A stretch of 51,231 nucleotides of DNA, counting the filler, from Perkinsus olseni (Eukaryota): assembly GCA_013115125.1 (NCBI GenBank). It is 2 parts of 2 records of this genome, joined end to end, with 100 filler letters (N's around TTAATTAATTAA, not from the genome) between each part and the next. Parts side by side here need not be neighbours in the genome. Positions count along the whole stretch, not along the records: positions 1 to 25,569 come from JABANN010000495.1; 1 more part is not named here. One strand, given 5' to 3'. Below are positions 105 to 43,800 of this stretch, in pieces (within the stretch, counting starts at the first letter, position 1; the number at the start of each line of letters is the position of its first letter). The position numbers and the translations under genes are program-made. The notes beneath the pieces are model-generated. The model was not told where the DNA came from and made no database searches. It worked only from the letters and a program-made list of their open reading frames with translations.

Positions 105-1310
105 ACTAGACCAAACCTTGCAGTTACCCTCCTTACAAGATGTGCTCACTCTGTTGAGCCACTGCATGGGGTGCAAACGCCCCACAGATCTGGTCCTCAC
201 TGTCGTCGACATCAAGAGCGCATTTCGCCTACTCGGCGTTCGTCAGCAGGAAACCGTTGAACTCAACGTCCGAGCGGGCGGCGTCACCTACAGACACCGG
301 TGTCTCCCGTTCGGGCACCGCAGCAGTCCTTTCAACTTTTCACGTACCGCGGGTGCAGCCCACCGGATGCTGCTGCTGCTTACGGCACTGTTGCTCTGGT
401 TCCTCTTTGGACTACTCTACGTCGACGACATGTTCTTCGCTATAGAGCGAGAACATGGAGTCGAGGGGCTAGGGCTTATTCTTGCCTTCTGGGGTTGCCT
501 GGGATTCGGTTTCTCCTACCGAAAGCTCCATTTAGGTCGCAAAGCGAAATTCGTGGGTTATGAAGTTGAGATCGCCAATGAAGGTATATACGTTACGGTG
601 CCGCGGGAAAAGCTCCAAGCTATGTATCACTGAGAACCTCAGGCAGACCCTGGTGGCGGTGCCCGTTCGTAAATGAAAAGAGCCTCGCGGCGAGGCCCTC
701 GCCAGTCTTGCTGGAAAACTCTCGTGGGCTTTGTATTGTTTTAAGCTTCTCCGACCCTACTTGTCTACGACTTTCGGAGCATTATCTCTGATGAAGAGAA
801 AACACTTGAGGAGCATGCGGACCCCAAAAGGGCTCCGGCAAGATCTATCTTTCCTGCTCAAGGTTTTCGGTGACCTCGACTCGAATGCGTTGTCCTACCC
901 GGTCCTCTCCTGCCAATGCGACATTGAGTCCGCAACACTGGTAGGCTCAGACGCGTCGACCACCGGACTGGCCGGCTTCGTACGACACGACGGGACCTGG
1001 ACGTACTGGTCCCTGCCGCTGAGCAATCTCCGCGAAGACGTCAGGAGAAGCGTCTGTGGAGACGCGTCGGCCTTCAGCCACAGGGATATGTGCTATCTTG
1101 AATTACTTGCCTCACTGATGACGCTGTCCCTATTGGCCCAATGGAGACCCACAACGCGGGTCATCGTCCAATGCGATAATCAAGGTGCTGTAGCAATCTT
1201 ACAGAAGGGATACAGCCCCAAGACGAGGGCGCAGTGGCTCCTGCGAAACGCCGCAGGATTCCTGTTCAAACTATCACCATTAATCTCCTTTCACTATATA
1301 AGCTCTCACA
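105..1310 (+). mobile_element. DIRS-like (tyrosine-recombinase retrotransposon) reverse transcriptase + RNase H fragment, disrupted
   Basis: RT motifs VVDIKSAF, CLPFGHRSSPFNF and LYVDD in ORF 61-633. LASLAGKLSWA lies at ~697-730. RNase H motifs GSDASTTGLAG, LELLASL and QCDNQGAV in ORF 731-1393. A stop at 631-633, and the RNase H ends after HYISSH without the usual N..AD.LSR. Confidence 0.8.
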
Positions 1311-1880: not shown

Positions 1881-2139
1881 TAAAATGACGTAGTTTAGCG
1901 AGGAGGGACAAATGCACGGCCTAGCTCAGAGAATCACACAAGAGAATCACAAACAGTTTGTGATACTCTTGTGTGATTCTCTGAGCTAGGAGGTGCCGTG
2001 CATAGTTACTATGGTACCCATGACGGAGGGAGTTCACTACAACCTGCAATAACCTTAGTCGACACTCCCCTGGGGAGTCTCCCCATGATCTCCCCCGACG
2101 CGCGGTCTTGTGTTGGATCAGCCTTGAGGGCCGCTCCGT

Positions 2140-3700
2140 GTGAAAATAGGAGTCTATTACGTACACTGCAACTGAATGCAATATGATCGCTCAGGGCCTA
2201 GCCTGAGCTGTTCAGAACACAAGCTTGCAGTGCCGTCCTATGGTGCATTCCTGCAGCCGATGCGAAAGCGCGGAGGACTCTCTCAGCTTCAGTCTACGCT
2301 CAACTCGCATCAATATCGATCGCGTCACGGTCTGAGGAGTTACTCACACGCATCAACTCGCCTCAACTTGTCGCAGAGGTTGGATCAAGTCACACGCCTT
2401 CTCGCAACCTCCCTGGAGACAGAGCAAGGCGGGTGATTGCCATGTAGCACACGGAGCCTGACCGTTCGAAGCACATTACCCGCTATTCAGTCGAGTCGAT
2501 GCGGAAAGAATAATTGAGACATCTCAGTGACGTAGTCTTCTTACTCACACGTGGCACACAACACTATGTGACGGATGGTCACGCGCCACCGTTCGACTAA
2601 TCTGAGGTTCAGATTCTGAGCATGAGCAGATCGGCAGCAGGCGTTAACAATGCAGTTTGGCCGGAAATCCGAGTGATGGTCGGGCTCAGCATGAGGGTAT
2701 AGATATTTCTAGAGATGACCGGCTGACCTCATTTGCATTGTTGCACTCGCGTGCATGAGTATGCGTTCTAGCCTCGATTTTACGCTAGGCTGGATTGCGC
2801 AGCGTAATCTACGCTAGAGATTCTCTATTAGAGAATATCATCATCGATCGGCTCCCCTCGAGTCCGGTTTTCTACCGCTCTTTGAGACTCGTCTCGAATA
2901 GCCACACTGACTGAGTTACTGCACATGCCCGTTGTTACTAGCACTCTACTAGGCTTAAGTGATATACCCTTCACCGAAGACTCTTAGAGTCTTGAGCGGT
3001 AATATGAACTGTGTGATTCACAGGCCTCTGTCTTCGGTGCTGCTTTCGGGAGGAGCTAGGGACGGTAACTCACGTAGCCTTAAGTCTTATGGGGTTCACA
3101 TCATGTGGGCGATTTGGGGCTTCCCCTAGCGCAGCTATGCACTCGATAGAATCAGCTGCGTTAACTACAAGTCGAAGTCTGGTCTTTATGCGGTAATTTA
3201 TGGGGATTGAACGAATCACCGGTCGCTCGGTCTACACAGGGCTGGGCTACTTCTCCGCCAAGGGCGTCCGTTTCAGTAACAGTGTAGCTTCGACATTGTT
3301 GCAACGCAAGATGATGAGTAAATAGCTAAGCGAGCTAAGCCAACGAGTCTTTTTCCAAGCTGACTCTCTTGCGGGGAATGCGCGTATGCAGTGCAACGTC
3401 GTATAATATTGACAGGCATGCTATCTTGGGAAATGGAATCATATCATCTCGGGTCAAGTGGTAGCTCGGTGTAGGTCGCGGGGGAGAGTCTGCAGGATTC
3501 ATGGTGCGATGAGTCCTCACTGGGGCCCTCTGCGAGGACTTCTTTCCTGAGTCCGAATGTTCCAGCTCAAACTGAGTTGGATCAATGTCTTCCTTCAGTG
3601 TGAGGTCACCTGTGATTGGTTGACAATAATCAGCTATCGGCAGAAATGCAACATAACCATATGAAAATTTCATCGTGAACAACGTGTGCGAATCATAGGG
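2140..3700. repeat. Segmental duplication unit, copy 1 (paralogous to ~4945-6370; partial diverged copy ~7880-8170)
   Basis: Colinear shared blocks, e.g. atatcgatcgcgtcacggtctg (~2312/~5066), gatagaatcag.tgcgt (~3145/~5664), gattgaacgaatcac (~3205/~5716), ggtagctcggtgt (~3460/~6027). cgtcacggtctg also occurs at ~7889. Confidence 0.85.
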
Positions 3701-4133
3701 CCTCGAGGGTGGGGGCCCCTCACCTTCTTCCACTCCTCACTGAGGGGGGATGTTCCTGAGTGCTCATCGTACCACAACAATCGTTACCGAATGTATTGTG
3801 GGCTACAACCTGCAGTGCCTTGAGAATCGGAGTGCTCAACTGTCTTCCGTGAGATGGTATGTTGATACGTACCGCAATTGACCAACACGAGACCGTGCGG
3901 ATGCGCAAAGGAGCCTTCCTTGTGTCCAACTGCTTACGCAACGTCACAGTTACTGGCAAGATGTCGCAACTAAAGGGATAATACTCCGGATGCCATTCTC
4001 GGCCCACAGCATTATCCTATATTAGATGGAATCGGCGAGGCCGGAGTACTCAACAGCTGAGTCTTGGCTGCTACTTCACAGCAAACCGATAAGAAAGTCC
4101 CTCGCTGTCATGCTGTCAAAAAGTTGGCCATTA

Positions 4134-4345
4134 TTACGGCCTCGAACGGAAGCATTCACTGTTCCAATGCAGAGAGCACTTCTCGCCAGAGGGGCACGGC
4201 GGGTTGCGAGAACCCGTAGAACACTCATAGTCAGACTATGATAGTCTGGCTGAAGCAGGGAACGAAGTTGGGCATCGCACTGTAGAGGGCCATACAGCAA
4301 CGCCAACCAGATGATGGTAATCAGGTGAAGGTAGATCTGGACCAT
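4134..4345 (-). pseudogene. Secreted Cys-rich peptide family copy A, frameshifted pseudogene
   Basis: MVQIYLHLITIIWLALLYGPLQCDAQLRSLLQPDY, then a 14-nt insertion (4227-4240). The shifted frame reads ECSTGSRNPPCPSGEKCSLHWNSECFRSRP*, paralogous to copy B with two Cys->Arg changes. Confidence 0.85.
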
Positions 4346-4667
4346 ATTAATGATAATCTGTAATGACCAGCTATCCCAGACCCGTCGCTTCTCGAGTCTC
4401 ACGGTTCGACTTCACGTTTATGAATTCCACTATTTTGTTGGCGCCCTCATACTTAACGCAAGCCAGCGACACTACCGAGACGAGCTTAATGAGCCCCATT
4501 GTAGTGGGAGTCTACTGCGAAATATCCATTTGGCCGTTATAATAGTAGCATTCGAAGGACCGAACCAGGTGGATTTATAAAAAGGCATGTTGAAACGCCA
4601 TCTCCTGGAATTGATGGTACCTTGGAATATTAGTGTCCAAAAAGGGCCCGTCGTTAGAAGCCCTTCC

Positions 4668-4865
4668 TCAGGGTCTGGAACAAAAGCATTGACTATTCCA
4701 ATGTATCAAGCACTTCTCGTCGGAGAGGCATGGCTTTCCGCAGGCACCTGCAGGGCATTCATACGATGGAGAGTACAACGCACGGAGTCGGGCATCGCAC
4801 TGCAGAGGAGCAGATAGCAGAACGAACCAGAGAAAAGTGATAAGCGAGAGGTAGGTCTTAACCAT
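4668..4865 (-). CDS. Secreted six-cysteine peptide precursor (65 aa), copy B, intact
   Basis: MVKTYLSLITFLWFVLLSAPLQCDARLRALYSPSYECPAGACGKPCLSDEKCLIHWNSQCFCSRP*: hydrophobic signal, C-x4-C-x3-C-x5-C-x7-C-x-C, four paralogs in the window. Confidence 0.85.
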   Translation of the reverse strand: MVKTYLSLITFLWFVLLSAPLQCDARLRALYSPSYECPAGACGKPCLSDEKCLIHWNSQCFCSRP

Positions 4866-4944
4866 ATTAATGTTAACCTGTAATGGATAGTCGATAATCC
4901 CCTCAATCTCAGCGATTGAGCGACCCAACGCTAGGCCGCTTAGT

Positions 4945-6370
4945 ATGGAAATGAGAGTCTACTGCATACGCTACAGCTTAATGCAATATAATTGGTTGGA
5001 GCACAGTCTGAGCTGCAAAACCGCGGAGGATTCTCCTGGCTTCAGTCTTAGGTCGACCAGCATTAATATCGATCGCGTCACGGTCTGCGTAGTCAGTTGC
5101 ACGCGTCATCTCGGCTCCACTGGTCGCAGAGACTAGACTTAGTCACAAACCATTTCGCAACTTTCCTGGGGACAGAGCAAAGCGGGGTATTACTCCGCAG
5201 CACACAGAGCGCTGGGCGCCTCGAGGCACATTACCTGTCATTCGGTCGAGTCGATGTAGAGAGATTAAATGGGAGATCACGGGGAGACAGCATAGAGACA
5301 TCCTATGCGCCGAGGGGTCACGCGTTACCGTCGCATGCACCTGCAGTTGAGAGGATCGGGGGTAGATCGGGAGCAGATGTAGTTTGGCCGGGAGTCCAGT
5401 CATGTTTCGGCTCTGTATTGGAGTATGCAAGTTTGGTCTCGTTGCCTCGAGCACTCTGCTAGATGAAGAGATGAAAGTGGTATTGTTGTGCACTGAACAA
5501 TGTTCAGGTCATTTGATCGGCATCTGCCTTCGGTGCTGCTCTTCAGAGTAGCTGAGGATGGTAGCTCACCTAAGTTAGGTGAGCCTCAAGGTTAAACCTC
5601 GAGTCCAATGTGGACGCCTCCGGACCTCCTCAACTTGAGGACCTCAAGTGCAGCTATGTACTTGATAGAATCAGTTGCGTGGACTGAGTATGAACTTTAC
5701 GCGCTCATTGGTGAGGATTGAACGAATCACTGGTCGCTGGCTACTCAGCACTTCGCTGCGGGACCGTCAAGGGCATCCGTCGCAGCAAAAAAAGTGTTGC
5801 GGCTCGGTTGCACATGTTCACGGAAGATGAGGAATAATTAACTGAGCTAATGGGTCAGACTCGCTTAGCCTTTTTCCACGATAATCCTTTGGTGGGAAAT
5901 GCAGAAATACAGTGAAACGTCGGAAAAGAATTGAGAACGTCAATTTTTTCAGAAGAATCCTTCTATTGTTCTCCATTGAAAAGCGTGCTTTCGCGAGCGA
6001 TGGAATCATAACAGCCAGGAACGAGCGGTAGCTCGGTGTGGGACGCGGGGGAAGTCTCCGTCGGCGACTCTCCGAGATTCATGATGTGATAAGCCCTCAG
6101 TGCCACTGAGGGCTTATCCCCACTGAGTCAGTGGGGTGTTGGAGGACTGCTCTCCTGAGTCTGAAGGTTCCAGCTCGAACTGAGTCGCATCAACGTTGAG
6201 TGTGATGCGGTCGGGCTATGATCTCTTCCCACAGTCACGAAGCTCAGAGCCATCTTGTCTTACGACTGACCGCGTCGTTCCGTGTCATATTACGTCTTTT
6301 TGGTCGACAATAACTGGCTATTGGCAGAGATGCAGCATAACCGAGTAAAAACTTCATCATGAAATGCAAA
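4945..6370. repeat. Segmental duplication unit, copy 2 (upstream region of Cys-rich peptide copy B)
   Basis: Colinear similarity to 2140-3700, differing by substitutions and palindromic insertions. Confidence 0.85.
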
Positions 6371-6689
6371 CAGCTCGTGCCGCACGAGTCGCGCGAACCG
6401 TATACTCTCAGAGTCTGACGCTAGCATAGAGCCTCATCACTAACGGCAGTAACCATTTTGTATCATCTCATGCTTCGAACTTCACTTTCGGTTCATTATG
6501 AGCTTCCTGATCTATCGCTACAGTCCCAGAGTGAGTCTGCGAGACTCTCTTTAGCGTGTTTGAGGCCTAAACTTTAACCTCGCATGCGGTCCTCATCCGA
6601 TAAGGATAAGTCCGACTAGGACTGGTGATCTCAGTAACAACTCAATAACAGTCTGAGTATAAGACGCATTCGTAAGAAGATGAAAGATT

Positions 6690-7335
6690 ATAATGTCTCA
6701 CGATGATATCATACTAAACTATTAAGTGCGACCGAAATAAATAGTAAGTTCATTCGCGAGTTCCCTGTAACTCATTGGGAGACTCGAGTAAATAGCAGAC
6801 TCATAGCAGGCAGCAAGTATCTCCTAGTAAACCGTCCGCGCCATCACGACCAACGCGGAGGAGGGTCGCTTCAGCAGTGCTGAGTCAGCACGGAGACTTA
6901 ATCAAAAGCCAGGAGCGTGGCGATGCATAACCAGTGAAATCTTGAAAAAGGAATCATTTTTCAAGATTTCAACAAACTATCCTTTTAAAGGATAGTGGAA
7001 ACTGCAATCCGAACCATTTTCATGATAACCTGCAATTGATAACCGTCATTTATAAGAAAAAGAAAAATTATAGTCTCTCATGATGATTTCATACTGAACT
7101 ATAAGTCCGAACGAAATGAATAGCAAGTGATTCGCGAGTTCTTCGTAACTTAGCATACTCGAGTAGATATCAGATCTATAACGGGCGAACAATTTCCTTC
7201 TAGCAAGCAGTGCGCGTCATCCCGGTTGACTGCGTTAACTTGACGCGGAGGAGGCTCGCCTCAGCACGGAGGCTCTTTCAAACGCCAGGAGAGTGGTGGT
7301 GTATGACCAGTAGAATATTGAAAGATGGAAAATGC
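6690..7335. repeat. ~380-bp tandem duplication (~6690-7010 / ~7070-7335)
   Basis: Shared blocks gatgat.tcatact.aacta, attcgcgagtt, actcgagta, acgcggaggagg and gccaggag recur at a ~380-bp offset. Confidence 0.8.
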
Positions 7336-7408
7336 AAAATCTGTATGGTAAAAGTGATATGATAGAAAACCGCTTGGCCTCCTTCATTAGAAAAAAGTTC
7401 GTCCGTGA

Positions 7409-7555
7409 TTAGCAGTTAACGCAGTGACATTCACCGTACCATTGAAGCTGGCAATATTGACCCGGGACAACTATATGGACCAGCTAGAGCACGCAGGTGG
7501 CCATCGCACTGGCGAAGCAGGCAAGAGTCATTAGGGGGAGGTAGGTCAGAACCAT
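7409..7555 (-). pseudogene. Secreted Cys-rich peptide family copy C, deletion-damaged pseudogene
   Basis: Near-identical to copy D (19105-19299) over aacgcagtgacattcaccgtaccattgaagctggcaatattgacccg and ggacaactatatggaccagctagagcacgcaggtggccatcgcactg, but with two internal deletions (~19 and ~29 nt). Confidence 0.85.
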
Positions 7556-10500
7556 ATTAATGATAGCCTGCAAAGGATGTCCGTCGACCCTACTCAGTCG
7601 GACTGAGTCCCTCACAACACTTGCGCACTCAGTGGAAGCTACTGGGTGTAAAAGGAGGATCATGCACGACAACTTACTGTAGTCTCGATGGATGAAACTC
7701 TAGACATGAAAAGTGAGTGAACCCGACGGTGACATTCGCACTGCGAGCCTTGCATCAGAATCCGGGAAGACCGGATACGGGGCCCCGGTCCGCGGAAGTT
7801 TTTCTAAGCTCCAGTCTCGGGCCGAATCTTTTGGCTCCCCCCTAGTAGGGGGGGCCAAACAGTACCATTGACGATGGATGACTGATTGCGTCACGGTCTG
7901 TACGGTCACTCGCACGCACGAACTCGTCGGGTGACAAGTTGTCACGCAGACAGAACGATTACACGAGCCTTTCCAAGCGTTTCTGAGGTAAACAGCCGGA
8001 AAGGTGATCATCATGCGGCACACAGAGAACAAGACACTTAGTGGCTCAGCATTCGTGGTTCGGTCTAGTCTATGTTGAGGCGTTGAGCGAGATCCCAGGA
8101 GGGCGGTATTGGGACAGCCTACGCGACAAGGAGCCGCACGTGAAACTGGTTTGAGGATCAGAGAATCGGTGATCGACTCTGTTGTCCAATCCAACCAATC
8201 GCTGCTAAGCTATCGTGGAATATTGAAGGATAAGCACGCGGTGCGAGCTCGCGCTATCGGCTGCGACGAAATCGTGGGGTCCCAAATTAGACCCCCTAAT
8301 TTTGTTATGTATATCACTGGTATACATCATCATATCATCATATAATATCAGCTCTGCTGCACTGAGCCGTGTGCACTCACCATCAGCCGCGACTAGCAGC
8401 TCGCTGCAAGAATAAATAGGCTTCTACACCATTTCCCGTGGACGGTCATTTTTGCCTGGTCACTTGTCGAACGTGCACTGCAACTTGCAGTCTGCAAGTT
8501 TGACCAGGCAAACGTCTCGCTGGAGTCCAGCGGCTGGAAATTCATCGTGCGGTGTCGCAAAGTTACTTCAAGAGCCTCTGGTACACTTGAGAATTCTCAT
8601 CTCGTTCTGACATCTGCCAGAGCCTATGGCCCATAGGTGAATTTTTTTCGCTGGAAAAGGAGGATAATCAACCCAAGCCCGTGGAGCGGGAGAACATGTA
8701 GTGCGGAGCGAGTTCCGAACTTGAAGGATTATTGACATCGAATATAGCGCTCGCAGGTACACATAGACAATAGCTGAGCAAGTAAGGTGAGCTTCCGTTG
8801 TTAAACAGTGTTACTCACATCATGATAACTCATCATTGATGAGCTCTCCATCAACTAGAATTTCGTCAGCCGCAACTTTTACCAGTAGCTAAGCCACTCA
8901 GTGACTGCAGTGGCACTCGTTTAGACCATCGTGATTCTCATCGCAGAAACTAATAAGTGAAAAACCAAGGGCTTTGGCGGGAAACATTTCTTGCTTTAAC
9001 AATAAGAATTAGATTGCATTCACAGCGTATATCGTACATGTTCTACCAACAATGTCAGAGAGGCGGCCAATGGAAAAATGAAGCGGCCAGCCCTTCGAGA
9101 ATAAATGAGTGTGACGGATTTTCCGAAAATCATTTTCGGCATGTGGTCGTAACAGAGCTCGTTCCAAGTTCCGGCTGCGAACCACGGCCCGTGATGCAAA
9201 CTCGAATTTGCGATTTCAGTTCAGCTTCGTCTGGTCAGAAACAGAAAGACGGAAAGCTCAGAGCTAGCTGACGCAAAACAGCTCCCGTCGAAGGAGGAGA
9301 ATCTCATCTGATGAGCAATGGCTGAAGGTGCAGCAGCAGCCGAGTGGTGCGAGAAAATACCTGAGACAACGCCAAGTGTTTTCACGCCCAGTTCGAGTTG
9401 AACTGTTCGACCATCCAAGTACTGTCATATGGCCCATATGAGGTACCAATCGCAACTTGATGGCCTACGGCTCTTCCTAGCTTTGTGCGTACTCAGAGCA
9501 ATGCTCTGAGGACTTATGCCATAAGTAACTTTCGAACTGTGCAAAAGCCATCCGACACGGGTCACTTCGCCAGGCGGACTGAGTTCGCCGGACTCTGCCT
9601 CTAAGCTCACATGAGAATTCTGCCGTAGGATCCGATCATAAAACACGTGAGTTCGCCAAGCGTAACGCTTGGACGGTTCCCCGGCAAGTCGCCGCGCATT
9701 CCCCCAGAGCACGCATGTGTCTACTGTGTCGCACGCGTATCTTTGACTCCCTCGCGCGCGTGTGGGTATCACGCTGTTCATGGGGAACCCTACGCTCCGA
9801 CCGTTCCCTCTCCAAGAAAACCCCGCATCGTTTTCTCTGCGCCCGATTTTCTTAACATGCGAAAACATCGCAAAGTCGCTTCGTGATGGCAGATTAATAA
9901 GACCACTCGTGAGCTGCTGACGTCGGCCGCCTGCGGCAGGGATCATACCTGAGTCTCGCGCGTGAGAGTCCGAGATACTAACCGCTAGACCAGAAACTCT
10001 GCACAAATACCGAACCTATTTTCGTTGGCTCCTCGACACGTTTGCGACGACTTGCTCATAATTACAATTCTTCCGCTTCGAAATGTCACAGTGAGCCCAC
10101 CAACAGCCGTTACACCTCTGTCAACTATTCTATCGCTATGCCGTCAGGCGAGCAACACACGCTGAATTTTGCAGAAAAGTATGGCGCCCGCGATCTTCGT
10201 TAACTGGCCGCCAGTTACTGGCGCAGCAAAGATTAGATCGAAGGGATACATGGACCATGTAACATGGTGAATACAGGAGACCAACTAACTTGGGGGTAGC
10301 ATCAACAACCATCAGTGGGCTTATTCAATAACAATCTTCACACGCTTCGCCCTCGGAAACTGCATCTCGAGTGCCTGTGAGATGTGTTGGTAGAACCTGT
10401 GTGGCCGCCGGCCACTGGCCGGGTGTGAAAGTGTCTTGAAAAGACAAAGATACCAGCACGCTGTTCTTTGATGTGCCACCCGGAGTCGACAATCACCAGG

Positions 10501-10992
10501 GTCGTAGAAGTTCTATGATAGAACGGATTGATACTTAGAGCAGAAGTCTTACACCTTCGAGACACGCTGGGCTGTGAGTTGTGAAAGGGATGGTATTTAC
10601 TGAGGTAAAAATGGCTCTACCGTTACCTCAACGAATCGAGTATCGTGGACAGTGGCTCGAAAAGGTTACGTTTCTTCGCGAAATTACCTATGAGTCTTGC
10701 GTGAGGATCTATTCCTCCATGGTTCATTTCTCCTACGGGCAAACACGACAGGATATTGCCCAATTTGCCAAGTATGAGAGAAGCCCTTGGATACAGTGAC
10801 ACCCCCCGCCGTTCAAGACTTCTAGAAAAGATTTTTATGCGTGAAATGGTGCGGTTCCAGAATCGATTCTGAGTTTCAGAATTGGTGTATTGAGCGACCC
10901 CTGATTTTCTCCACTTGCTTCTACGAGGGAGTATGCGCCGAAATTTTCAGATATAAAACCTCTCTCTTTCTTTCTTAGACTGAATTCCTCTC

Positions 10993-13900
10993 ATGTTCAA
11001 AGAGCGAGAGAATCGGTCGCAGATGATAACACTGCAGTTCGGCCGGGCTTCGAATCATGTGGGTGCCCAGTATTGGAATATCCTAGAGAAATCTGATGAT
11101 AAAAAGGCTGTGGAACCGCAGTACAGGTCGATCGATCGGCCTCGAGTCTTTATATGCGACTTTAACAGGGCACTTGGTAGTAGCTGGGAAGGGGATGGCT
11201 GGTCATGACGATGCGTTCCATAAAAATTGGAAGTACATTGTCAACTTCCGTTGTCCGTCTTCTATACCGCAGGGGACGATAGAGTTAGTCCTACCATAAA
11301 ACCACCAAATAGGGAAGTAGTCCTCTGTAGAACGCCTTGAGTGTGGAGTTCGGAGATGAATCTTGGTCTCAAACTCAATATGTTCTTCGAATCATGCCTG
11401 ATAATTTTGGCGAGAGTTTTAGAAGGGAAAGGGCGCCTTGCTTAGCACCCATTTCACTGGCAGTTTGTGATCTCCTTCTGGGGTATGGTTGAACACCGCT
11501 CAAATTCTGCCGCACCGATCGGCGGTCTTGCCGCTCAGTTTTACCTGAGTATATGATCCACCTCGGAGTTGCAATCGGCGACTGTCTATTACTCGGGCGA
11601 GCATTAGATATAATTCTTCACGAGGCTGCGGAAATTCTCGCCGCTTTTTTCCGTAGAAATTCGGTAATTTTTTCGATCTGAGAGCGGATGGTGAACCGGC
11701 TTCGTCTGGTCCGTCTGAGTTATTTTAAAAATTATTATACCATTCTCGGAGCACGGCACTAAGTTTTTATATCGATCATCATGTAGGACCCGCTATGTCG
11801 CGTCAAGGGAACTCCGAGTTGGGATCCGATGAGATGAGTCGAGTTTATAATGAGCAAGCATCGAGGGTGCAGGTGTATCGGAGGGATGATGTTGATGGCG
11901 GAGGGGACATGTATTGGACCAACTACATGAGTACACCTCTAGAGAATTGCTGTAATAGGAAGGGGATCTTGGTGGACTGTGCGTTGGGAATTTCGCTCGC
12001 AAAGCTTATGAGTGGTAGCCTGTAGATCACAACTATCGATCGTGCGTTTCCCCATGTTTCTGGTTCCGTACGCTCCACCTTCGGTTCGGCGAGGTTATTA
12101 TGGACTGTGAAAGGAGATAGTGCGACACTATGGGACCTCGTCGTTGTGAAAATGAGAGTTATTTTTTCGAAGTGACTCGCATTCGCTGTCCGCAATTAGT
12201 GGCGTATTATTGAATAGTAATTAATAGTGATCAGTAGGCAGGTAGTGATGCTACCTAAACGTCCACCAGAAGAATGAATTATATTTTCATTAGTAATGAG
12301 TTTCACATGATATTACTCTCCTCGCCATGATTATATTGTTGTAAACTCCGTGAAGATCGCTGCGTGCTTTATCATTGTGGATAGGGTCACTTCGCCATGA
12401 AAGGCAGCTTCTTTCGGGGTCGCTTTTATATTCCGCAATTTACTTGTGAAGGTTTGAAACGAAAGGTGGCGTCTGAGTGACACTAGTCTTGTGAACAACG
12501 CGGGGCGGCGGCGACGTATGGTCGAAATCCGCAAAGATATGCTTTTAGCGTACTGTGGTTCATCTTGAGGTTGAAAGATACTCATTTTACTCCCGGCGAT
12601 TATGGTACTAAAGAGGATGCTTATTATTATTCGCCACATACTGATTGGTCGGAGACGTCCTTGCGGAGGCTACTGGAAGGATGCGATCGTTTGGGTACTG
12701 TGCAGGTAGGTTCACTGCCAACCCAGATCTGGGAATTTCGTGGCGCGCGGGAATGAAGAGCGTCCCTCCGCGAAGCAACCTTGAAGCATCGTCTCGGTTG
12801 ATATGAAATGGACAAGTAAAGTTGATATTATATGAACTCTGTAGTGTTAGCGAACCTTTTCGTTCGGTCGTAGTAAACGAGGGCGTTAATGTTTTGGGAG
12901 TCGGTTGACGATATCGCGTGTCTTGGTAGCAGGAGCTGCAGATGCCTTCTGATCGTCATGGCAAATTTGAAATAACGGGAGGATGAACTCTGTTATTAGT
13001 AATGGGTTGCTTCAGATGCTCTATGATGTTTCTGCTTCCTTTACGGGTCTCTGCACGACGGCATTTGAATGGTTGGCTGAGGAGGCACCGAAGAAAGATG
13101 TCATTTTACTACCAATAGAGACTTTCGGGAAGGGCACAGAGGCTTCACATTGGTGTAATAACATTTCATACCACACTTCCCCCGGATCATGTCTGAGTAG
13201 GCCTCAATTTCGCCTACTCTATTAGCCGATGCCTGCCCACTGAGAGCAGCCCTCTCCATGTCCTTGGATGCCTCCCTTCGTCACAGCCCTTCGGGTCCAT
13301 CCTCGACGATGAGAGGCTCTACCGGTAGGCTTCGCGCTTCCACTGGCTAAGGAGCTTCTCTCTGTTGAATTTCTCGCTAGCGGAGCATTCTCTCTCTATC
13401 TTGCCTGAGGGGTGATGGTTGGGCTCGCTCGTCGTTACGCGGGGCCGAACGTGCCGGCTACAGTAGCCCGACGGTTTGATTTCCGAAGCGCTCCGCGATC
13501 TACTCGTCGATTTTTTTGAGAGGACTTGTCCGCTGACGATAGTGTGTGAACGCCGAGAAACGGCTCAGTCGGACTAGCTCCGATGCATCTTCTTTGAAGA
13601 GGGTTGAGTTTGGGTACGTCTATTGAGCACAGAGAGTAGAGCTCAGATGGACAGGTAGTCTGTAAAATGACTTCGCTGAGAGTGTCGTTGTTATCGATGA
13701 TGTTTTCCTTATCACGGCTGAGGGAAGCTGCTCATTGTCAGGCGATCCGCACCTGTTGCCCTCTCCCTCGCTGCACTAGCGTATTCCCAGTACACGAAGA
13801 ATGAAGAGTCGAGCTACAAGACGGCACTGCGGGGCCGAGGTGGTCTGGCGGATTGGGGTTTACTGGGTGGTGGTGATGGGCAGTGGAGATACACGGCTGA

Positions 13901-14773: not shown

Positions 14774-16497
14774 ATGGCTAGCACGCCCCCACCAGAAGGG
14801 GAGGCAGCTCATGAGCATCATCATCATGTCCATCACCATCATCACGAGGTGTTGCACTTCCCGATGCCTGTGGATGAGTTGAGGGCGAAGAGAGCGGCGG
14901 CGAATCAACGCGCAACTGCAGTGATTGTGAAGTCGCAGTCTAGTGTGAGTGGGGGAATGCTGCAGAGCTGGAGGATCAGCTGTTGGCGAGGAGGCTGATG
15001 TGAGTGTGGTCGGTCTTTGGTAGTTGTTCGTACCTCAGTCTAAGAAGAAGTCGGCCGATGCGCAAGGTGGAGCCCTCCTGGAGCCCATTCATGAAACTTA
15101 CGTGAGTAATGTAGCGGCTGCGGCTGAGCATGTCTGTTGTAGGTTTTGGATCACGTGGCGGATCTACTGCGGAAACAGCATCTTAATATGACAGCTCCGT
15201 CATTCCGGACTCGGATTGAACCGGAAGTCGTCTTCTCAGCGAATTTGTTCTTTCGAAGATTTTTCACTCGGTAATACGACATCGGCAGGATTCGAACCTG
15301 CGCGGGCTGAGCCCATTGGATTTCAAGTCCAACTCCTTAACCACTCGGACACGATGTCTCTGTCTAGAACGATTCACTAGGGTAGGTAAACCTGTAGTTC
15401 CAGTTGTTCTCAGCCATTCAGTGTTGGAGTTTGACCCTTTGGTCGTGATATTCTGCTGCGTATCTCTCGCCTGCAAGACTGAGGAGTTTCACGACACCGA
15501 CGTACGCGGGCTGATGCTCATGCCCGAAGGGGCCGATTCCAGTGGAAGTAAATACGTGGTCGACCCGAAGATTCTCGCTGAGGTGATGACGTCGTGAGAC
15601 CTCATGAGCTCCTGAATCTAATCATCAGGTTGAGCTGGACCTTCTCAGCGGCTTGAATTACGATTTAGTTGTCGACCAGCCTTGGCCTCCTCTCTTGCTC
15701 CTCTGCCGTCGACTCGTGTCTGGCAACCATCTGGATCGGCCAACGGCGGAGCGCATTTTTCGGCATGCCTCGGACCTGCTCACTTCAAAATGGCCGTAAG
15801 GACATGGCTCTTCTCGGATGGATGTTTCGGGGGTCACGGTGTCGTCTCACATCTGAAGCTTCTCCCAGTTCTCCCTATTCGCGGTTCGTTTTCCTGCAGG
15901 TATTGCGATGCCGTTGCGGCGTTCCCGCCTGGAACCCTGGCCGCCTGCGCCGTTGGGAGCGTTTGGCCAACGATTGTGTCTGAGTCGACCACACGGGATG
16001 GTCTCGAGGTTGTGTCCAAGATTATTGCGGACATGGGAGCAGAGGAAGGCTCTAGCGCGGATGAGTTGGAAAAGACCTTGAACGAAGTTGGTTGCCAGGC
16101 CTACATCGAACGTTCCATTTTAACTCTCAGATCACCATCCTGTTCACCGACTTCGAGCGGAATCGATCGGATCCGATGATGTTCGACCCGACTTTGATGA
16201 TGCAATTGGTTAAATATCGACAGAAGTTTGAGCGCACTCGCCTCCGCACGCTGGCCGGCGACGAGTCCCGAGTAAGAATCGCCACGACTGGGTTCGCCCC
16301 CACGTTGCGGTGGTCAGGCAAGTTCAAGGAAAGGGTCGAAGAGGAAGAGTAGCAAGAGCAAAGAGGGAGGGAGCAAGAAGCCGAAGAAATCGAAGAAAGA
16401 AGCAGCGCCCCCTCCAGCGCCCTCTGTTCTGTCCTCGCCCGATGCTTCCTCTGTTTGCCCCAGTATTAGCGGTGAAGAGGACGAACCTGCGAGTTGA
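14774..16497 (+). CDS. CCNH: Cyclin H-like protein (multi-exon)
   Basis: Spliced cyclin box EVVFSANLFFRRFFTR|HSVLEFDPLVVIFCCVSLACKTEEF and VELDLLSGLNYDLVVDQPW, matching the cyclin H/C/T-type pattern (FKRFY..SVMEY.P....C.FLACKV.E; EL.L...L.F.L.V..P). Lys/Ser-rich last exon ends at TGA 16497. Confidence 0.75.
15277..15358 (-). tRNA. tRNA-Ser (anticodon TGA)
   Basis: Minus strand GACATCG-TGTCCGAGTGGTTAAGGAG-TTGGA CT TGA AA TCCAA-TGGGCTCAGCCCGC-GCAGGTTCGAATCCTGC-CGATGTC-G: complete 82-nt cloverleaf with long variable arm and A/B boxes. Confidence 0.97.
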
Positions 16498-18607: not shown

Positions 18608-19104
18608 ACACTCTCGAACGTACTGACTGGAACTTGAAGGTGTTTAGTTGTCAGTGGGGGGCCGTCGCGGCTGAGCGGGGACTCTCCCTTGGCTTGAAAT
18701 GGAAGCGTTGATGAGATATTCAGTCAATGTTGACGCGGACCACTGCTGCTGTTGAGACCTCGACTGATTCTGGACGCCACACAGCTCGAACTGTGCTGGC
18801 AAGTGAACGCTATCAACAATCCAAGTGCTTGACAGTGGCAAGAGTCCACAGGGACACACAGTGTCCCTTAGGAGGCTTGGGAGCTCGCCCTACTGCGGAA
18901 CTCAATGCCACGGTGATTTAAAAAGTGAGAGTCCGTCGGGTATCAGCCTTATTCAATAAATCAGCTACAACACGATCGGCTGTTAATATTGGTGATGGTA
19001 TGTTTGCGGTGTTCTACTTGATCCCTAAGCCTAGAATGAGGGATTTAGGAGAATCCACGCTGATGCGCGCGCGTTCAGTCTTCCGACCTTGTGACAAGTT
19101 ACGG

Positions 19105-19299: not shown

Positions 19300-20461
19300 A
19301 TTAATGATAATCTGTAAGGGACAGCCATCGGCTGTACACAGTCCCTCTGAGGGACTCCCTCACAAGACTACCGAATGCAACATGAGGAGCAAGGCATGGG
19401 TGGAGTGGCCGTCGGTCGTACGTGAGTGCATAGCTGTCATCTCGATCACGCAGCGCAGGGGCTTGTCGAATGAGGCGATATGGTGCGCACGGAGCATCAT
19501 AGCCCTAGAGGTCTATGTAGCAGTAGAGCATGCCTTCTTCGCTGCATGATGCACCCACAAAGCGTCGTGACGCGGGGACACGAAGACTCGAGAGGTGTGC
19601 CGCTGTTACTCATATGCGCTGATCCTCTTGTGCAGACGTGCACAGCTAATACTTAATACCCCCGAGAAGAACTTATAATGAACCTTTCGACGTATCTTGA
19701 CTTCCCGTTCTCCATGAGAAACAACACCAACAAGCCCTTTTCGGGCGACGTCCATACTGTGTGCGCCGGTGTGAGTTCGCTCGATCACCATCTGGTGTGT
19801 GTAAGTTTGACCCAAACGCCGTTTTAACTAGGAAACTAGGGAAACACAATATCTTGTGTAAGGAACCGAGAAGCTCTTTCTTCACACCATTGTTGCAGTT
19901 GCTTTGGCTCGCCATTGGAAATACTTGCACAAGCAGACGTTGAGGATAGTCTGCGACGAGATCACCATTTGACTCGGGAGCGAATACTCGCACAGAGCAA
20001 GCGCAATTCCACCACGAAAAGAAGGCCACAGAAGGGATCATGCTACTCTCGAGCGTGCTCGCTGCTAACTTGAACCATGTACGGGTCTGAGAGGCTCAGT
20101 AGCCGGTCGCGTAGTGGCCGGTCGCGTTGCTCTTGTATAAGCTAATGCTAGCAGTTGCCTTAGGCTACGTATTGTCGAATCGTCGTCCCGATTTCGTACA
20201 GTAGGTCTTTCCCCTCCGAGCTCGCCTGTGCCGCCCTACGCTCTCAGGGCCAGCGGTGGCGGCGGGCCCGTGACCGGTGACCGGTCTGCATCGCTCGAAA
20301 TACGGAATTCCAGTGCGATTCGAGACGTCTCGTCTTGATGGGAATTGCATGATGCGGTATCGCCTGGCTTGCAGCTCTTCGTTCTACTAGTCTATACGCG
20401 ATTCATCCTAAGGCTCCACAGAGCACATCCCCATTTTTCTGAAGAATTCTGTCCTCTGTGA

Positions 20462-39563: not shown

Positions 39564-40557
39564 TTCGCTCAATGTAGCTGCAATCACGTGGCGACCGCTG
39601 ATCCCATTTTCTCATTCTTGTGTGCGCGTTGGGTGATGTAAGTCTCAAGCGATGTAACACTGAGCATATTACTCATGAATTGCTGAACAGCATGTTCAAA
39701 CCACGGGCCCCAAATACACCTCAGGGTGCAACTCTATGATGACGCCACGTGGACCTTGAGCCACTCCTTCAAGGTTGATGACGAGACTCACCTAACCATA
39801 TGATGTTCGAAGTGCTTGTCAACGATAATCAGCGAGTGCCGATAGCTACCAGTGGTAGCCTACCACGTAGTCACATTTGCAAAGGGCTTCTGCGGGCTTT
39901 CAACCACGAAGGAAGTACTTTGTTGAAAGTGCACTAATCGATGTTAAATTAACATTGTTAATTTAACAGTAGTAGGGATAACAGCCACATAGCGAGGCAG
40001 ATGAATTTCAGCACAATAATTGCTGGCCTCAGGCAAACGATGATGACTTCGTCCAACTTGCAGTAACAAGGCTTCTCCATTACGCATGCATGGGAGTTGT
40101 TAGTAGCGACGCGATCATTGATAGATAACTCGACATCGCACGGTTGGGTAAGAAACGAATGCCTCCATGTCCATGGGTCACTCAAATCTCTTGGGAGGTA
40201 ATATGGATGCCGTTATCTGAGCTCGTGCCAATGGGTGGGGAGTCGAGCTGTCGACTGACTTGCCTTGCCCAACGCGAGAGCGCAATTCACGCATCATCGG
40301 AGGTGAGCCAGCCCGAAAGCGTCCTGGAGGCGTAGCGTCCAACACTGGCCAGATGTGCATTGTAAGGCCGGTAGAATAGAATGCTGAAGGGACCTAAAAC
40401 TGCACGCATTAACTGTGGAAAGTTCCCACTGGAAACTCTATTCAATGCCACGAAGTCATCTCTCCTCACCTCTAACTTCGGAAAACGACATAGGGTGTCG
40501 AGAAGACAAGGCCTGCCCGTCGGGCAGTGCCCGAGAAGCAGAGGGGATGCGCGCCGA

Positions 40558-40830
40558 CTATACCATTCAGAAGCCTATTTGGCGGATAAGGCCGCCTATA
40601 TGGGGCTCGAGGATTTCACGTTAGCGAGTTGAGACAGCAAATTAGCGGTAGGGTCGAGATGAGGGGATACAATTGGCGGATAAAGAAGTCATTTTAGCGG
40701 CAGGCCTCAAATAAGGATTTCTTATTAAGGGAATCAATTCCGCGAATAAGGCGCGCAATTTTATGATTAAGGAAATCAATTTCGCCGATAAGGACATCAT
40801 TTCGGGACGGCCCGTCCCGGACGGGGGATG
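40558..40830 (+). repeat. Putative transposon terminal region with subterminal GATAAG(G)-like repeats
   Basis: First ~125 bp match 25670-25795 inverted. ttggcggataa occurs twice, with further aataagg/gataagg and taagg.aatcaatt repeats through ~40795. Confidence 0.6.
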
Positions 40831-43800
40831 GGCAGTCCATCATGGATTTCAACCACGTACTGCGGTAACCGCGCATTGTATGCCAAGTAACTGCCGCTAA
40901 GCAGAATATCAGTTCTTTCCGAGTTGTCGCAGTACGTGGTTACTTTTTGCTGTTGCAGGTTGCGGCCTGCACTGGGGGTTCAACTGACTGAACTCGTAGG
41001 AAAGAGCGGTACATTTGCAGGACTGTTTGTAAAATAAATATGTAGATAGTAACGATTGTAAGTGTACAACTTTAGTATGGAACTCGTACAATACGAGATC
41101 TACGCATGCGATCCATGTACTAGAGACCTTGCCCAGTGCGGCCCGGCCAACATCCGCCGGAAGCTACATTCCTTACTTTCTCGAGGGACTGTTGATATGA
41201 TGGTATCACGGATATCGGACGTATTATGAACCAGCCTCAATTGCTCGATTGCTCCATCATGCAGGTTTGCGCGGACCCACTGCTGGAGTGCCAGAAGGGG
41301 ACCCGCAGTCCCGTCCTCCAAGGCGTCTTCTGGTATCTCCAAGAAAAGTTTAACCTGAAATTCAGGTTAAGCGCAGTTTCATTCACGCCCTGAACGAATA
41401 ACCGTGAAAACCACGCATCATCGACATTGCCCTAATTTGAGGAGACCATTCCGTCCAGTATTGCAGTCTGCAATTTGCAGAGTAGAATTGGGTGTTGAGT
41501 GTCTAATGAGGAAGTAGTGAGCATTTTTCGTGTGTCATTACGTAGTCGCACGAGGGCAGTCTGCCCGATTCTCGAATGCTGAATGAACATCCTTCAGTGG
41601 GATTCATACGTGAGTCCTCCAGATATGATCTCTCTAATTTGAGCCGAATCACTTGACGGGTTTTCGGAAACCTCTAAAGAGGGCGCATCGATGCGAATGC
41701 AATCTGTCACAAATCGCACAAATTATTTCTGCATACCATCACCTGTACACCGTTCATCCTATCCAGATGTCGCAAGGCCCTTATAGCGCCGGGGACTTCC
41801 CGAATATACGTGCAGAACCTGCGAACACCATGCGGAAAAATTAAGTGACAGTACTCCAGACTCAGCTAAGACCAAACTGATAATCCTCTGCTTACTCTCT
41901 GCTGTGCACTAGGCGTGAGACAGATTCTGGTAGATAGCCGTTGCCTTCTAACACCCGATCGGAGACTCGCTCTGAGTTGTCCGGCAGGATCACACCTGAA
42001 AGCCTCCGAGGGCCGCCGGGCTCGTCGCGTAGCGTGACGACCTTTCACTACACTCGGGACGCCCTTGCCACAACTCCCGCACGGCCCCTTCAACGTCACA
42101 GATCGTATCAACCAGGTCCACGAATATAACGTGAAAATTTTCCTCATACGGCGGGACATATTCGGTGGGGTGGCGAATCTGACGAAGCCCCGAGTCTGCG
42201 CCGTTGAATAATTCCGTCAAATCCTCGAGATCGCTCGAGGCTGTCGTGGGAGACGATATGGAAAACATTGCCTGATGCGTTCCTCTGTATACAAGACTGC
42301 ACAGATGGCTCAGCGGCAGTGACATGATAGAACGCAACAACAGTGCATAGTCAAGGTTCTTCATCTTATAAGCCATGCGAACAACGTAAAAGGATTCAAG
42401 CGGACCTGAAGATCTAACACATGATACTGACACTGGCGATTTATCTAGCGGCAGAAGTGCCCCGCGGGACAGTGACTTGCGAATGATAATACTATTATCT
42501 CAGTCGATGGCGGAGGTCCGTAGCCTAAAACGAGCAAGGGAGGGTTCTTCGAAACCGGTAGGTCTACTTCTCACAAAAGTCATTCGCGAAGCCTGCACTT
42601 CAATCTTCTATTGGACATCAACTTCTTCCTCGAATCCTCGTATCCTTCTTCTTGTGCCTCGAGCAATGCACGATAGAGCAAGGCAGCTTGCCTAAACCGA
42701 GCACTACTGAGATCTAGAATTCTCCCCCTAAAGCTAGGCCAACGGCTTATAGCGGCTCGAGTGGACGTCCGGCGCTGGAAGATATTCCAATCCGCGGGTA
42801 GGATCACAATTGCCGGAGGAGCGGATCTCAGATGGGAGCCACTTGCCTCGTCGCGGACTGGGGGAAGAGAACATACTCAGGTAAGACTCCGAGAGATTGA
42901 AGGTGAGCTTACTAGAAGCGGCAGTTCCCACTGCATAAAGCATAACGTCAGCGTTGAGCTCAAACGCCGAAGGGCCCACAACAAGACGAACACGGCCCGG
43001 ATAAGCGTCTGATTATCAGCCGAGGAGTATCAATCGCTACAATTCGTTGACTTACTAAAATGCCTTCTGATGCAGCCGATGAGTTCAAACCACAAATCCG
43101 TCAGCGCAGTATCGTGTCCTCGGGCAGCCGCTTTGGAATTAGCGAAGACGGTAACCTACAGCCAACGTGCTACAGAAGGTTATAATACACGTCTTCCTGC
43201 AGAGTTACTTGCACTCCAGGTACGGCCATCAAAGATAGCACTGTTCCTGTGTAATGCTCTAGAGCCGCTTTGTCATGTACGACAAGTACAATTTTTGTAG
43301 TAGCCTGGGGATGATCACCCATTGCGCAGGATAATGGAGCCAAATCAACTAAAGTACACAGGCAGTGGTCCCCGAGATATACCCGTGGAAGAGGGGACAA
43401 CTTCCCCAATGCACTCGGTTGATATCGGTTATGGCTTCAGACCGATCTCCCTCTCTGTCGGAACGAGTCTTTCCTCACAACAACGGTACCCAGTCGGTAC
43501 TGCCCACGGCTTTTTGTGGCGAGGTCTCACATAGTTAGACACTGATTCATCAATATTCGCTCTGAAAATTCGAAAATAGAATCCGCGTAGCAGCTCCCGA
43601 ACAGGTATACTGACACAGGATCTGATCCACTGATCACGTGAGTATTACTGTTCACTGAACAGTAATACTCGCTGAGTCAGTGTTCCGTGTTACAGTAACA
43701 CTGAACACTGATTCAGCGAGCATTACTGTGGTTGAGTAACACTGTTACTCGACCACGTTGTATTCGCGAATAGGAAAGACCAAGTTACGACCGTCCAAGC

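Follow-up and report, generated by a model that had tools for sequence, protein, structure and literature searches.

Numerous fold-back insertions in Perkinsus olseni DNA are probably excision footprints of a hAT-type transposon

Hairpins on flanking DNA are described as products of hAT, Transib, MULE and RAG systems alike (PMC5499845). In the footprints of hAT elements the added palindromes have as their centre the complement of the base that adjoins the element (PMC5873905). For Ac/Ds in yeast the same source gives palindrome arms of up to 20 nt and the use of microhomology at joins, while in Candida the longest palindromic additions it gives are 3 nt. Hermes duplicates 8 bp of the target site and has a preference for nTnnnnAn targets (PMC10368747; PMC2803484).

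Here we analysed one stretch of the Perkinsus olseni assembly GCA_013115125.1, 51,231 nucleotides long with filler included and called the window below. The window is Perkinsus nuclear DNA; one of its ORFs had 97% identity to a P. olseni protein. A sequence-only reading had pointed to five places, here items (i) to (v), where duplicated copies differ by a fold-back copy of adjacent DNA. All five were found where it had placed them, and the inserts are inverted copies of adjoining DNA, as it had stated. Such insertions are real and very numerous. We counted 49 events in 51 kb, or about 1 per kb, a high density that agrees with the recurrence noted earlier.

The signal is carried by palindromes with a single-base centre (odd palindromes). 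The whole window contains 76 perfect palindromes in which arms of 7 nt or more flank a 1-nt centre, whereas 30 dinucleotide shuffles averaged 2.33 and never exceeded 7; for arms of at least 8 nt, the count was 28 versus 0.57. Loops of 0, 2 and 4 nt occurred at expectation (3 zero-loop hairpins versus 3.7 expected). Hairpins with a 5-nt loop and arms of at least 7 nt showed a modest excess (12 versus 2.63). The 1-nt loop had by far the strongest enrichment, with no comparable excess at any other loop size. The distribution of arm lengths peaked at exactly 7 nt, found in 48 of the 96 perfect palindromes with a single-base centre. Also, 24 neighbouring palindrome pairs had a centre-to-centre distance of exactly 7 nt, while any other spacing up to 40 nt was seen at most once.

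These pairs combine into one 22-nt motif, T1-7 + rc(T1-8) + T2-8, where T1-T8 is an 8-bp unit and rc stands for reverse complement. The net gain per motif is 14 nt. The window scan returned 19 perfect copies (14/14) and 11 copies with one mismatch (13/14); five shuffles gave no perfect motif at the same unit of 8 bp and offset of 1 nt. Among the units of at least 6 bp tested, the enrichment is restricted to this combination. Perfect motifs at offset 1 numbered 0 for units of 7 and 9-12 bp; at offset 0 there were none for units of 5-12 bp, and at offset 2 none for units of at least 6 bp. At both centres of each of the 19 perfect motifs (38 of 38), the base is complementary to a terminal base of the duplicated 8-mer, a regularity imposed by the match criterion. 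Besides these motifs, two double palindromes at other spacings (24 and 48 nt) had an 8/8 identical inferred duplication, which makes 2 of 93 pairs compared to 0 of 558 shifted controls.

Copies with one or more substitutions occur as well. With loci grouped by best motif score, we found 9 at 13/14, 5 at 12/14 and 19 at 11/14, while local shuffles produced 0.05 loci at 12/14 and 1.9 at 11/14. A second class of footprints was considered and rejected. Offsets of 3-5 nt gave nothing above chance (2 matches at 10 matched positions), the offset-3, unit-10 match of 14 positions being the same locus as item (i). A 5-bp unit at offset 1 gave 6 matches versus 0-1 in shuffles, several of which, by eye, fall within longer palindromes or decayed 8-bp motifs.

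The canonical footprints are as follows (window coordinates; target sites here and below are inferred; no strand is assigned to a feature unless given).

682..703: canonical footprint, GCCTCGCC, 14/14
2064..2085: canonical footprint, ACTCCCCA, 14/14
2814..2835: canonical footprint, one mismatch, 13/14
4226..4247: canonical footprint, target site CATAGTCT (+ strand), 14/14; item (i), in the minus-strand secreted-peptide ORF 4079-4345
5486..5507: canonical footprint, one mismatch, 13/14
5627..5648: canonical footprint, target site TCCTCAAG, 14/14; part of item (v), opposite a 14-nt gap in copy A
6374..6395: canonical footprint, one mismatch, 13/14; 21-nt gap in copy A
6870..6891: canonical footprint, target site CTCAGCAC, 13/14; item (ii), missing in the paralogue at ~7261 (family D9)
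8477..8498: canonical footprint, ACTGCAAG, 14/14
8518..8539: canonical footprint, one mismatch, 13/14
8616..8637: canonical footprint, one mismatch, 13/14
8822..8843: canonical footprint, one mismatch, 13/14
9117..9138: canonical footprint, GATTTTCG, 14/14
10202..10223: canonical footprint, AACTGGCG, 14/14
10247..10268: canonical footprint, TACATGGT, 14/14
10401..10422: canonical footprint, GTGGCCGG, 14/14
10503..10524: canonical footprint, one mismatch, 13/14
19341..19362: canonical footprint, GTCCCTCA, 14/14
22602..22623: canonical footprint, ACTCCCAC, 14/14
23232..23253: canonical footprint, GCAGCGGT, 14/14
23692..23713: canonical footprint, GTTGATGA, 14/14
26214..26235: canonical footprint, AACCACCT, 14/14
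39845..39866: canonical footprint, GCTACCAC, 14/14
39941..39969: canonical footprint ATGTTAAT and an overlapping second 13/14 motif, together a 13-nt-arm palindrome
40513..40534: canonical footprint, CTGCCCGA, 14/14
40804..40825: canonical footprint, GGGACGGG, 14/14
41460..41481: canonical footprint, ATTGCAGA, 14/14
49584..49628: two adjoining motifs, one mismatch each, 13/14 each

In our reading of the compound site at 39941..39969, the insertion hit an odd palindrome that was already there. A cluster of 13 events, counted as odd palindromes whose arms measure 7 nt or more, lies between 8.4 and 10.6 kb, and ORFs of at least 110 aa hold 14 of the 49 events although they cover 46.7% of the window, an under-representation with p=0.0075. 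The hairpins are not known RNA genes, since the Rfam and tRNA scans of the window gave a single match, one tRNA-Ser.

Other sites depart from the canonical form, as non-canonical footprints or single long palindromes.

1914..1996: odd palindrome, the longest of all, with 41-nt arms (93% complementary) around a 1-nt centre
5564..5584: single odd palindrome, 10-nt arms, part of item (v)
6088..6136: non-canonical footprint, item (iii), target site CTCAGTGG; 8/8 in the target-site duplication test; gaps in copy A
6933..6996: non-canonical footprint, item (iv), target site AAAAGGAT (by eye); 37-nt gap in the other copy
7592..7608: single fold-back, 8-nt arms; right target-site copy trimmed according to the parse
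41350..41370: single odd palindrome, 10-nt arms
43640..43670: single odd palindrome, 15-nt arms
43687..43750: non-canonical footprint, inferred target site GTGTTACT; 8/8 in the target-site duplication test

Item (iii) consists of two palindromes with 1-nt centres, with 15-nt arms at 6088-6118 and 9-nt arms at 6118-6136; it can be parsed as both flank fold-backs, of about 16 and 10 nt, retained around the inferred target site. Item (iv) parses as a left fold-back of about 19 nt with one mismatch, a 4-nt filler and a right fold-back of about 11 nt. Its first part, 6935-6971, has 15-nt arms and a 7-nt loop or, in an alternative reading by eye, 18-nt arms with one mismatch and a single centre; the second, 6976-6996, has 10-nt arms and a 1-nt centre. 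At 43687..43750 the two fold-backs are separated by a 32-nt filler resembling the neighbouring palindrome.

Comparison of paralogues showed the sites in two states, empty or with a footprint only, and motif presence differed between old paralogues at 74-79% identity. The item (ii) insert is the motif at 6870-6891 that the ~7261 paralogue lacks; item (iii) faces two gaps in copy A, one of 6 nt and one of 22 nt, a 37-nt gap corresponds to item (iv), and in item (v) the palindrome 5564-5584 accompanies the motif facing the 14-nt gap. A paralogue of the 7592..7608 site has another footprint, shifted by 4 nt (19341-19362). The broader statement that inserts distinguishing paralogues are fold-back copies applies to a part of the gaps: of the 20 alignment gaps of 5 nt or more, 8 lie next to an odd palindrome whose arms measure at least 6 nt, and 1 or 2 further gaps are, by eye, decayed motifs. 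Gene inactivation was borne out in one case, where the item (i) insert truncates the peptide gene. The minus-strand peptide is similar to its intact paralogue only as far as residue 36, and the insert lies at exactly this point. The frameshifted peptide (P0007) had no homologue in the protein database.

We consider it likely that the inserts are excision footprints of a hAT-type cut-and-paste transposon, which would duplicate 8 bp of its target and leave the flanking DNA with hairpin ends. The hAT reading is favoured because of the fixed geometry, namely the 8-bp duplication, seen in 19 motifs at the 8-bp unit and in the two further 8/8 double palindromes, and the odd palindromes, whose central base is complementary to the one that would have adjoined the element, in line with the rule given in PMC5873905. 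The nTnnnnAn preference was also observed: 26 of the 60 observations on the inferred target sites fit T at position 2 and A at 7, a weak bias (43% versus 24% background, p=7.7e-4). What we infer from these observations is the transposon itself, the hairpins on the flanks, hairpin opening at a distance from the tip and repair by annealing.

The proposed sequence of events would be the following. Insertion of the element would duplicate 8 bp (T1-T8). At excision, the transposase would nick each flank one base in and join both strands into a hairpin, the tip of which would be the complement of T8 on the left flank or of T1 on the right. Host nucleases would then cut the hairpins open at least 8 nt from the tip, leaving a 3' tail of sequence rc(T1-8) on the left flank and one of sequence T1-8 on the right flank. 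Being perfectly complementary, the tails could anneal and, after flap trimming and gap filling, yield T1-7 + rc(T1-8) + T2-8 with the net gain of 14 nt. Tails that fail to anneal in register may leave longer fold-backs, trimmed ends or filler, which would account for items (iii) and (iv) and for the isolated long palindromes.

Neither a transposase nor an element with terminal inverted repeats and 8-bp duplications was found in the 51-kb window. A strict search for resident elements (8-bp direct repeats around inverted termini, at least 10/12 terminal matches) returned 0 candidates. A relaxed search that included YARNG termini, the hAT terminal consensus, gave 2 unconvincing matches among 12,756 repeat pairs. 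We found no transposase domain in any of the 73 ORFs with 110 aa or more, nor in 126 of the 261 ORFs of 65-109 aa, a scan that covered all but the 135 in gene-dense stretches. A literature search on Perkinsus and hAT returned no title or abstract about hAT elements in Perkinsus, and PMC4501334 had nothing on hAT.

These negative searches count against the hAT reading, as do the weakness of the nTnnnnAn bias and the density of about 1 event per kb, which is very high for excision footprints. The scars might come from a hit-and-run hairpin-forming system that breaks DNA, with a domesticated or unusually mobile transposase instead of a conventional resident hAT family; we regard this as unlikely. 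If it were so, the 14-nt palindromic scar, found here about once per kb, would rank among the chief ways in which indels form in this genome. Such scars would be concentrated in intergenic and promoter DNA, eroding fast-evolving secreted-peptide genes, and the genome would be seeded with perfect hairpins.

The rival explanation that survives best, rather unlikely in our view, is that the same lesion was made by another enzyme, either of a different superfamily that duplicates 8 bp (Merlin-like, P-like or unknown) or a domesticated hairpin-forming transposase with no conventional resident element. The searches described above, which found no resident hAT element or transposase in the window, speak for it, as do the unusually high event density and the Merlin-related ORFs with a conserved DDE motif described in P. 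marinus (PMC8101967). On the other hand, the 1-nt offset and the T2/A7 bias fit hAT specifically, and an 8-bp duplication requires an earlier staggered integration. The MULE hairpin product of 43+43 nt given in PMC5499845 means no offset.

A Transib/RAG-type or MULE-type footprint was rejected on the counts. We found 0 motifs at offset 0 and 0 at offset 1 for units of 9 or 10 bp, and zero-loop hairpins were not in excess. Transib elements duplicate 5 bp of their target and MULE elements 9-10 bp.

Quite improbable is fold-back mutagenesis independent of any transposase, in which replication template switching or Pol theta-type snap-back at spontaneous breaks would copy adjoining DNA in inverted orientation. 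This was the mechanism proposed in the sequence-only reading. The inverted orientation of the inserts agrees with it, as does the modest 5-nt-loop enrichment; the 32-nt filler resembles nearby sequence in the manner of templated insertions, and the family-A polymerase group (POLA/POLQ) is scored present in P. marinus in the supplementary table of PMC6635534. However, template switching and snap-back would leave inverted copies with length and position varying by microhomology and a loop of several nt, while the observed product is quantised, always an 8-bp unit with a one-base centre complementary to the neighbouring native base, with none of the other units of 7 or 9-12 bp or offsets 0 and 2 represented (units of at least 6 bp). 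A 1-nt loop is impossible for physical snap-back, and spontaneous breaks would not give a target-site bias. Generic fold-back is not supported as the primary cause because such processes have no reason to yield a quantised product. What may stand from the earlier proposal is a repair step, since tail annealing with occasional, apparently templated filler (between 43694 and 43742) is plausible. Loss of end joining as the reason for the long fold-backs found no support: the same supplementary table, which has no Artemis/SNM1 column, scores Ku70, Ku80 and Lig4 as present in P. marinus.

An artefact of amplification, sequencing or assembly is scarcely credible, for although the window is a draft with two contigs joined by an N/TTAATTAATTAA linker, the motifs have substituted copies, are depleted in long ORFs, show a target-site bias and differ between old paralogues, and we know of no artefact giving an 8-bp duplication with complement-centred palindromes.

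If the hAT reading is right, the Perkinsus genome is a legible fossil record of cut-and-paste transposition; to our knowledge, excision scars in most genomes are too short to be recognised. Each event would be a self-identifying 22-nt motif that discloses its 8-bp target site. Transposition events could then be counted and roughly dated, insertion preferences mapped (for example, in the cluster at 8.4-10.6 kb), and the opening and joining of hairpins in this alveolate read from the scars. Polymorphic scars could serve as strain markers. The scars would also explain concretely how frameshifts arise in a family of small, cysteine-rich secreted peptides and where hairpin-forming sequence in non-coding DNA comes from. 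The titles and abstracts found by our literature search contained no description of such motifs or scars in Perkinsus.

With respect to known systems, the window resembles Ac/Ds (plants, yeast, Candida) and Hermes in the 8-bp target-site duplication, the complement-centred palindromes and the nTnnnnAn bias; it shares with Ac/Ds the microhomology-guided joining and the long arms of the palindromes, which in yeast measure up to 20 nt. Unlike in Ac/Ds and Hermes, the full-length T1-7 + rc(T1-8) + T2-8 product dominates in the Perkinsus window, arms reach 15-41 nt, and footprints occur about once per kb with no element found nearby, the system being known here from inferred footprints alone. Off-centre opening of flank hairpins also gives palindromic additions in V(D)J joining (P nucleotides) and in Transib and MULE excision (PMC5499845). 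Since those hairpins lack the 1-nt offset, they would give even palindromes, unlike in Perkinsus, where offset-0 motifs (units 5-12 bp) numbered 0.

Template-switch mutations and Pol theta insertions likewise make perfect hairpins from inverted copies of adjoining sequence, with possible templated filler at one junction here. Those events vary in length and position with microhomology at the switch point, whereas the Perkinsus unit is fixed at 8 bp with a 1-nt centre. Finally, the introner elements of Amoebophrya, a related alveolate, also spread short inverted and direct repeats across a myzozoan genome (PMC7789003). The introners are, however, repeated introns with terminal inverted repeats of 8-20 nt and direct repeats of 3-5 nt, while each Perkinsus insert is unique and copied from its own target site.

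The inverted inserts reported in the sequence-only reading, in which a stretch is followed by its reverse complement and then by itself again, are confirmed and strengthened, and the phenomenon is of a known kind. They are probably best explained as excision footprints of the hAT type (a superfamily of cut-and-paste transposons), repaired via long palindromic tails. All five examples were found where reported: item (i) at 4226-4247, item (ii) at 6870-6891, item (iii) at 6088-6136, item (iv) at 6933-6996 and item (v) at 5564-5584 with 5627-5648. They sit in old tandem paralogues with 74-79% identity, and a gap stands opposite every insert in the other paralogue (14 nt for item (v), 6 + 22 nt for item (iii), 37 nt for item (iv)).

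Paralogue units and contig joint in the window
At 2129 and 4934: tandem paralogue units of ~2.7 kb
At 6640 and 7040: tandem paralogue units of ~0.4 kb
25570-25669: contig joint, an artificial join; two 44-N runs around TTAATTAATTAA, a linker with stops in all frames

The claim that insertions between paralogues are fold-back copies held for part of them: 8 of the 20 gaps of at least 5 nt adjoin an odd palindrome (an inverted repeat around a 1-nt centre) whose arms measure 6 nt or more. The other 12 lack such a neighbour; by eye, one or two of them are decayed copies of the motif described below. Item (i) lies inside a minus-strand ORF, 4079-4345, for a small secreted-type peptide. The match of this ORF to an intact 65-aa cysteine-rich paralogue (4668-4865) ends at residue 36, which is the exact position of the insert. 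A database search with the frameshifted peptide returned no homologue, nor were other alleles of the broken gene found.

We also observed that these peptides form a five-copy minus-strand family (4079-4345, 4668-4865, ~7400-7580, ~19100-19330 and ~24100-24230) whose members begin with a signal-peptide-like stretch and have a cysteine-rich tail. The copy at 4668-4865 is intact, the one at 4079-4345 is frameshifted, and the ~7400 copy has deletions relative to the ~19100 copy. Two paralogues with 95-100% identity immediately upstream carry different footprints, at 7592-7608 and 19341-19362; their inferred target sites lie 4 nt from each other, which suggests an insertion hot spot.

Perfect hairpins were counted across the window by loop size, with 30 dinucleotide-preserving shuffles as control. 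For arms of at least 7 nt, 76 hairpins had a 1-nt loop, compared to a mean of 2.33 (maximum 7) in the shuffles. Loops of 0, 2 and 4 nt were at expectation (3 vs 3.7, 3 vs 2.33 and 3 vs 2.6), while loops of 3 and 5 nt showed a mild excess (7 vs 2.43 and 12 vs 2.63). Restricting the count to loops of 0-4 nt and arms of 8 nt or more left 33 hairpins, 28 of them with a 1-nt loop. Odd palindromes whose arms reached 6 nt or more numbered 96, and in 48 the arm length was exactly 7 nt; neighbouring centres were exactly 7 nt apart in 24 pairs, and any other spacing up to 40 nt occurred at most once. The 5-nt-loop hairpins (e.g., 4902-4920, 32984-33004, 39056-39078) have no paired motif, and at least one, 26834-26854, looks like a variant footprint junction. 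The longest odd palindrome (1914-1996) has 41-nt arms that are 93% complementary.

Two 7-nt-arm palindromes with centres 7 nt apart make up a 22-nt motif, T1-7 + rc(T1-8) + T2-8, where T1-T8 are the bases of an inferred 8-bp target site. An 8-bp stretch stands twice in direct orientation with its exact reverse complement in between; each flanking copy is without its junction-side base, and the complement of that base stands in. This complement rule was held by 38/38 centres of the 19 copies that are perfect at all 14 constrained positions; 11 further copies scored 13/14. We varied the unit length k (5-12) and the offset, i.e., the number of bases absent from each flanking copy, against five shuffles. 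At k=8 and offset 1 there were 19 matches compared to 0 in every shuffle. No matches were found in the window for k=7 and k=9-12 at offset 1, for any k from 5 to 12 at offset 0, or for k of at least 6 at offset 2, where the k=5 count was no higher than in the shuffles.

Grouped by best score, 19 loci reached 14/14, 9 reached 13/14, 5 reached 12/14 and 19 reached 11/14, compared to 0, 0, 0.05 and 1.9 after shuffling within 1-kb blocks. One substitution in the middle eight bases lowers the score by two, and by our reasoning much of the 12/14 class is therefore a single mutation from perfect, so that perfect and once-mutated motifs are similar in number. This looks like steady accumulation, not a single burst.

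With centres clustered and arms of at least 7 nt, the 51 kb held 49 events, spread very unevenly (16 in 5-10 kb, 1 in 15-20 kb). ORFs of at least 110 aa contained 14 of the 49 while covering 46.7% of the window (p=0.0075). Thirteen events fall within 2.2 kb (8400-10620) of apparently intergenic DNA upstream of a Misato-like gene fragment (10984-11205).

The window is eukaryotic nuclear DNA with intron-split genes and a reverse-transcriptase fragment. A tRNA scan gave a single tRNA-Ser (TGA) at 15277-15358 (-), and a 421-aa SET-domain ORF at 17342-18604 (+) matches a P. olseni hypothetical protein over its full length with 97% identity. On this ground the window was taken to be DNA of Perkinsus, an alveolate that parasitises molluscs. 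Intron-split myosin gene fragments (motor domain, IQ motif) lie at ~35200-36650 (+); footprints are few in the tRNA-Ser, SET-domain and myosin stretches. The reverse-transcriptase fragment (25-630) matches Pfam RVT_1 with a score below the curated threshold; after it comes a 238-aa ORF (677-1390) that belongs to no known family. This ORF carries a canonical footprint, i.e., the 22-nt motif, at 682-703, so scars occur in retroelement remnants too.

Both contig ends at the joint are repeat-rich. A 126-nt inverted dispersed repeat (25670-25795 vs 40558-40683, 91% identity) begins exactly at the contig edge. Its copy at 40.5-40.8 kb is flanked by two canonical footprints, and after it come clustered ATAAGG/TTAAGG-like short repeats resembling subterminal transposase-binding repeats; the 126-nt repeat may be a transposon fragment. 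A 45-nt tandem array of more than 30 copies (45770-47350), inside long ORFs of both strands, may be repetitive coding sequence, and a 152-nt tandem repeat (at least 2.3 copies, 90-96% identity, 50880-51231) continues past the window end.

The canonical product could arise if each flank hairpin were cut 8 nt or more away from its tip, on the strand that yields a 3' tail. The left tail would be rc(T1-8) and the right tail T1-8, perfect complements; their annealing, with flap trimming and fill-in, would add 14 nt net and yield precisely T1-7 + rc(T1-8) + T2-8. Such annealing would explain the pattern without a template switch. Tails joined out of register would keep both fold-backs, and two 8-mers are then predicted to be identical: the 7 nt leading up to the left centre followed by that centre's complement, and the right centre's complement followed by the 7 nt after that centre. 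Among all 93 odd-palindrome pairs (arms of 5 nt or more, separated by no more than 120 nt, 7-nt spacing excluded), two matched at 8/8, namely 6103/6127 (item (iii)) and 43694/43742. None of the 93 scored 6 or 7, and 8/8 was seen in 0/558 shifted controls. By eye, item (iv) also fits: its target site is AAAAGGAT, its fold-backs measure ~19 and ~11 nt, and 4 nt of filler lie between them.

A fold-back repair process acting without a transposase, as originally proposed, is unlikely to be the cause, because the quantised geometry points to a transposase. It may contribute at junctions: the 32-nt filler of the 43.7-kb pair resembles the adjacent palindrome, the only hint of the templated synthesis proposed. 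A mere absence of the classical end-joining pathway does not account for the long fold-backs, since Ku70, Ku80 and Lig4, along with MRE11, RAD50 and the POLA/POLQ group, are scored present in P. marinus in a supplementary table without Artemis-type genes (PMC6635534). An assembly or amplification artefact is made unlikely by the mutated motif copies, the depletion of events in coding-like sequence, the target-site bias and the differences in inserts between old paralogues.

No resident element with 8-bp repeats was found in the window and no transposase in its ORFs, the scan of shorter ORFs covering 126 of 261. The titles and abstracts searched gave no description of the pattern in Perkinsus. 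Dada and Merlin-related elements are reported in P. marinus (PMC3706591; PMC8101967). Transfected DNA has been reported to integrate where transposable elements lie (PMC7200600).

Flank hairpins are formed by hAT, Transib, MULE and RAG alike, and the MULE hairpin product of 43+43 nt has no offset (PMC5499845). Hermes, a hAT member, makes 8-bp duplications with the target pattern nTnnnnAn (PMC10368747, PMC2803484). Among 30 reconstructed target sites (symmetrised), T at position 2, which is equivalent to A at 7, made up 26/60 observations compared to a 24% background (p=7.7e-4), and A at position 2 was depleted (7/60). In three respects, its 8-bp unit, its 1-nt offset and its target bias, the motif agrees with hAT, and in none of them with Transib/RAG or MULE. 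Excision footprints of the hAT member Ac/Ds in plants, yeast and Candida are described in the same terms as our motif and attributed to flanking-DNA hairpins; arms in yeast are up to 20 nt long, and microhomology is usual at the joins (PMC5873905). Compared to such footprints, those in the window are unusual in that no element is left nearby, their density is about 1 per kb, and one full-length product dominates.
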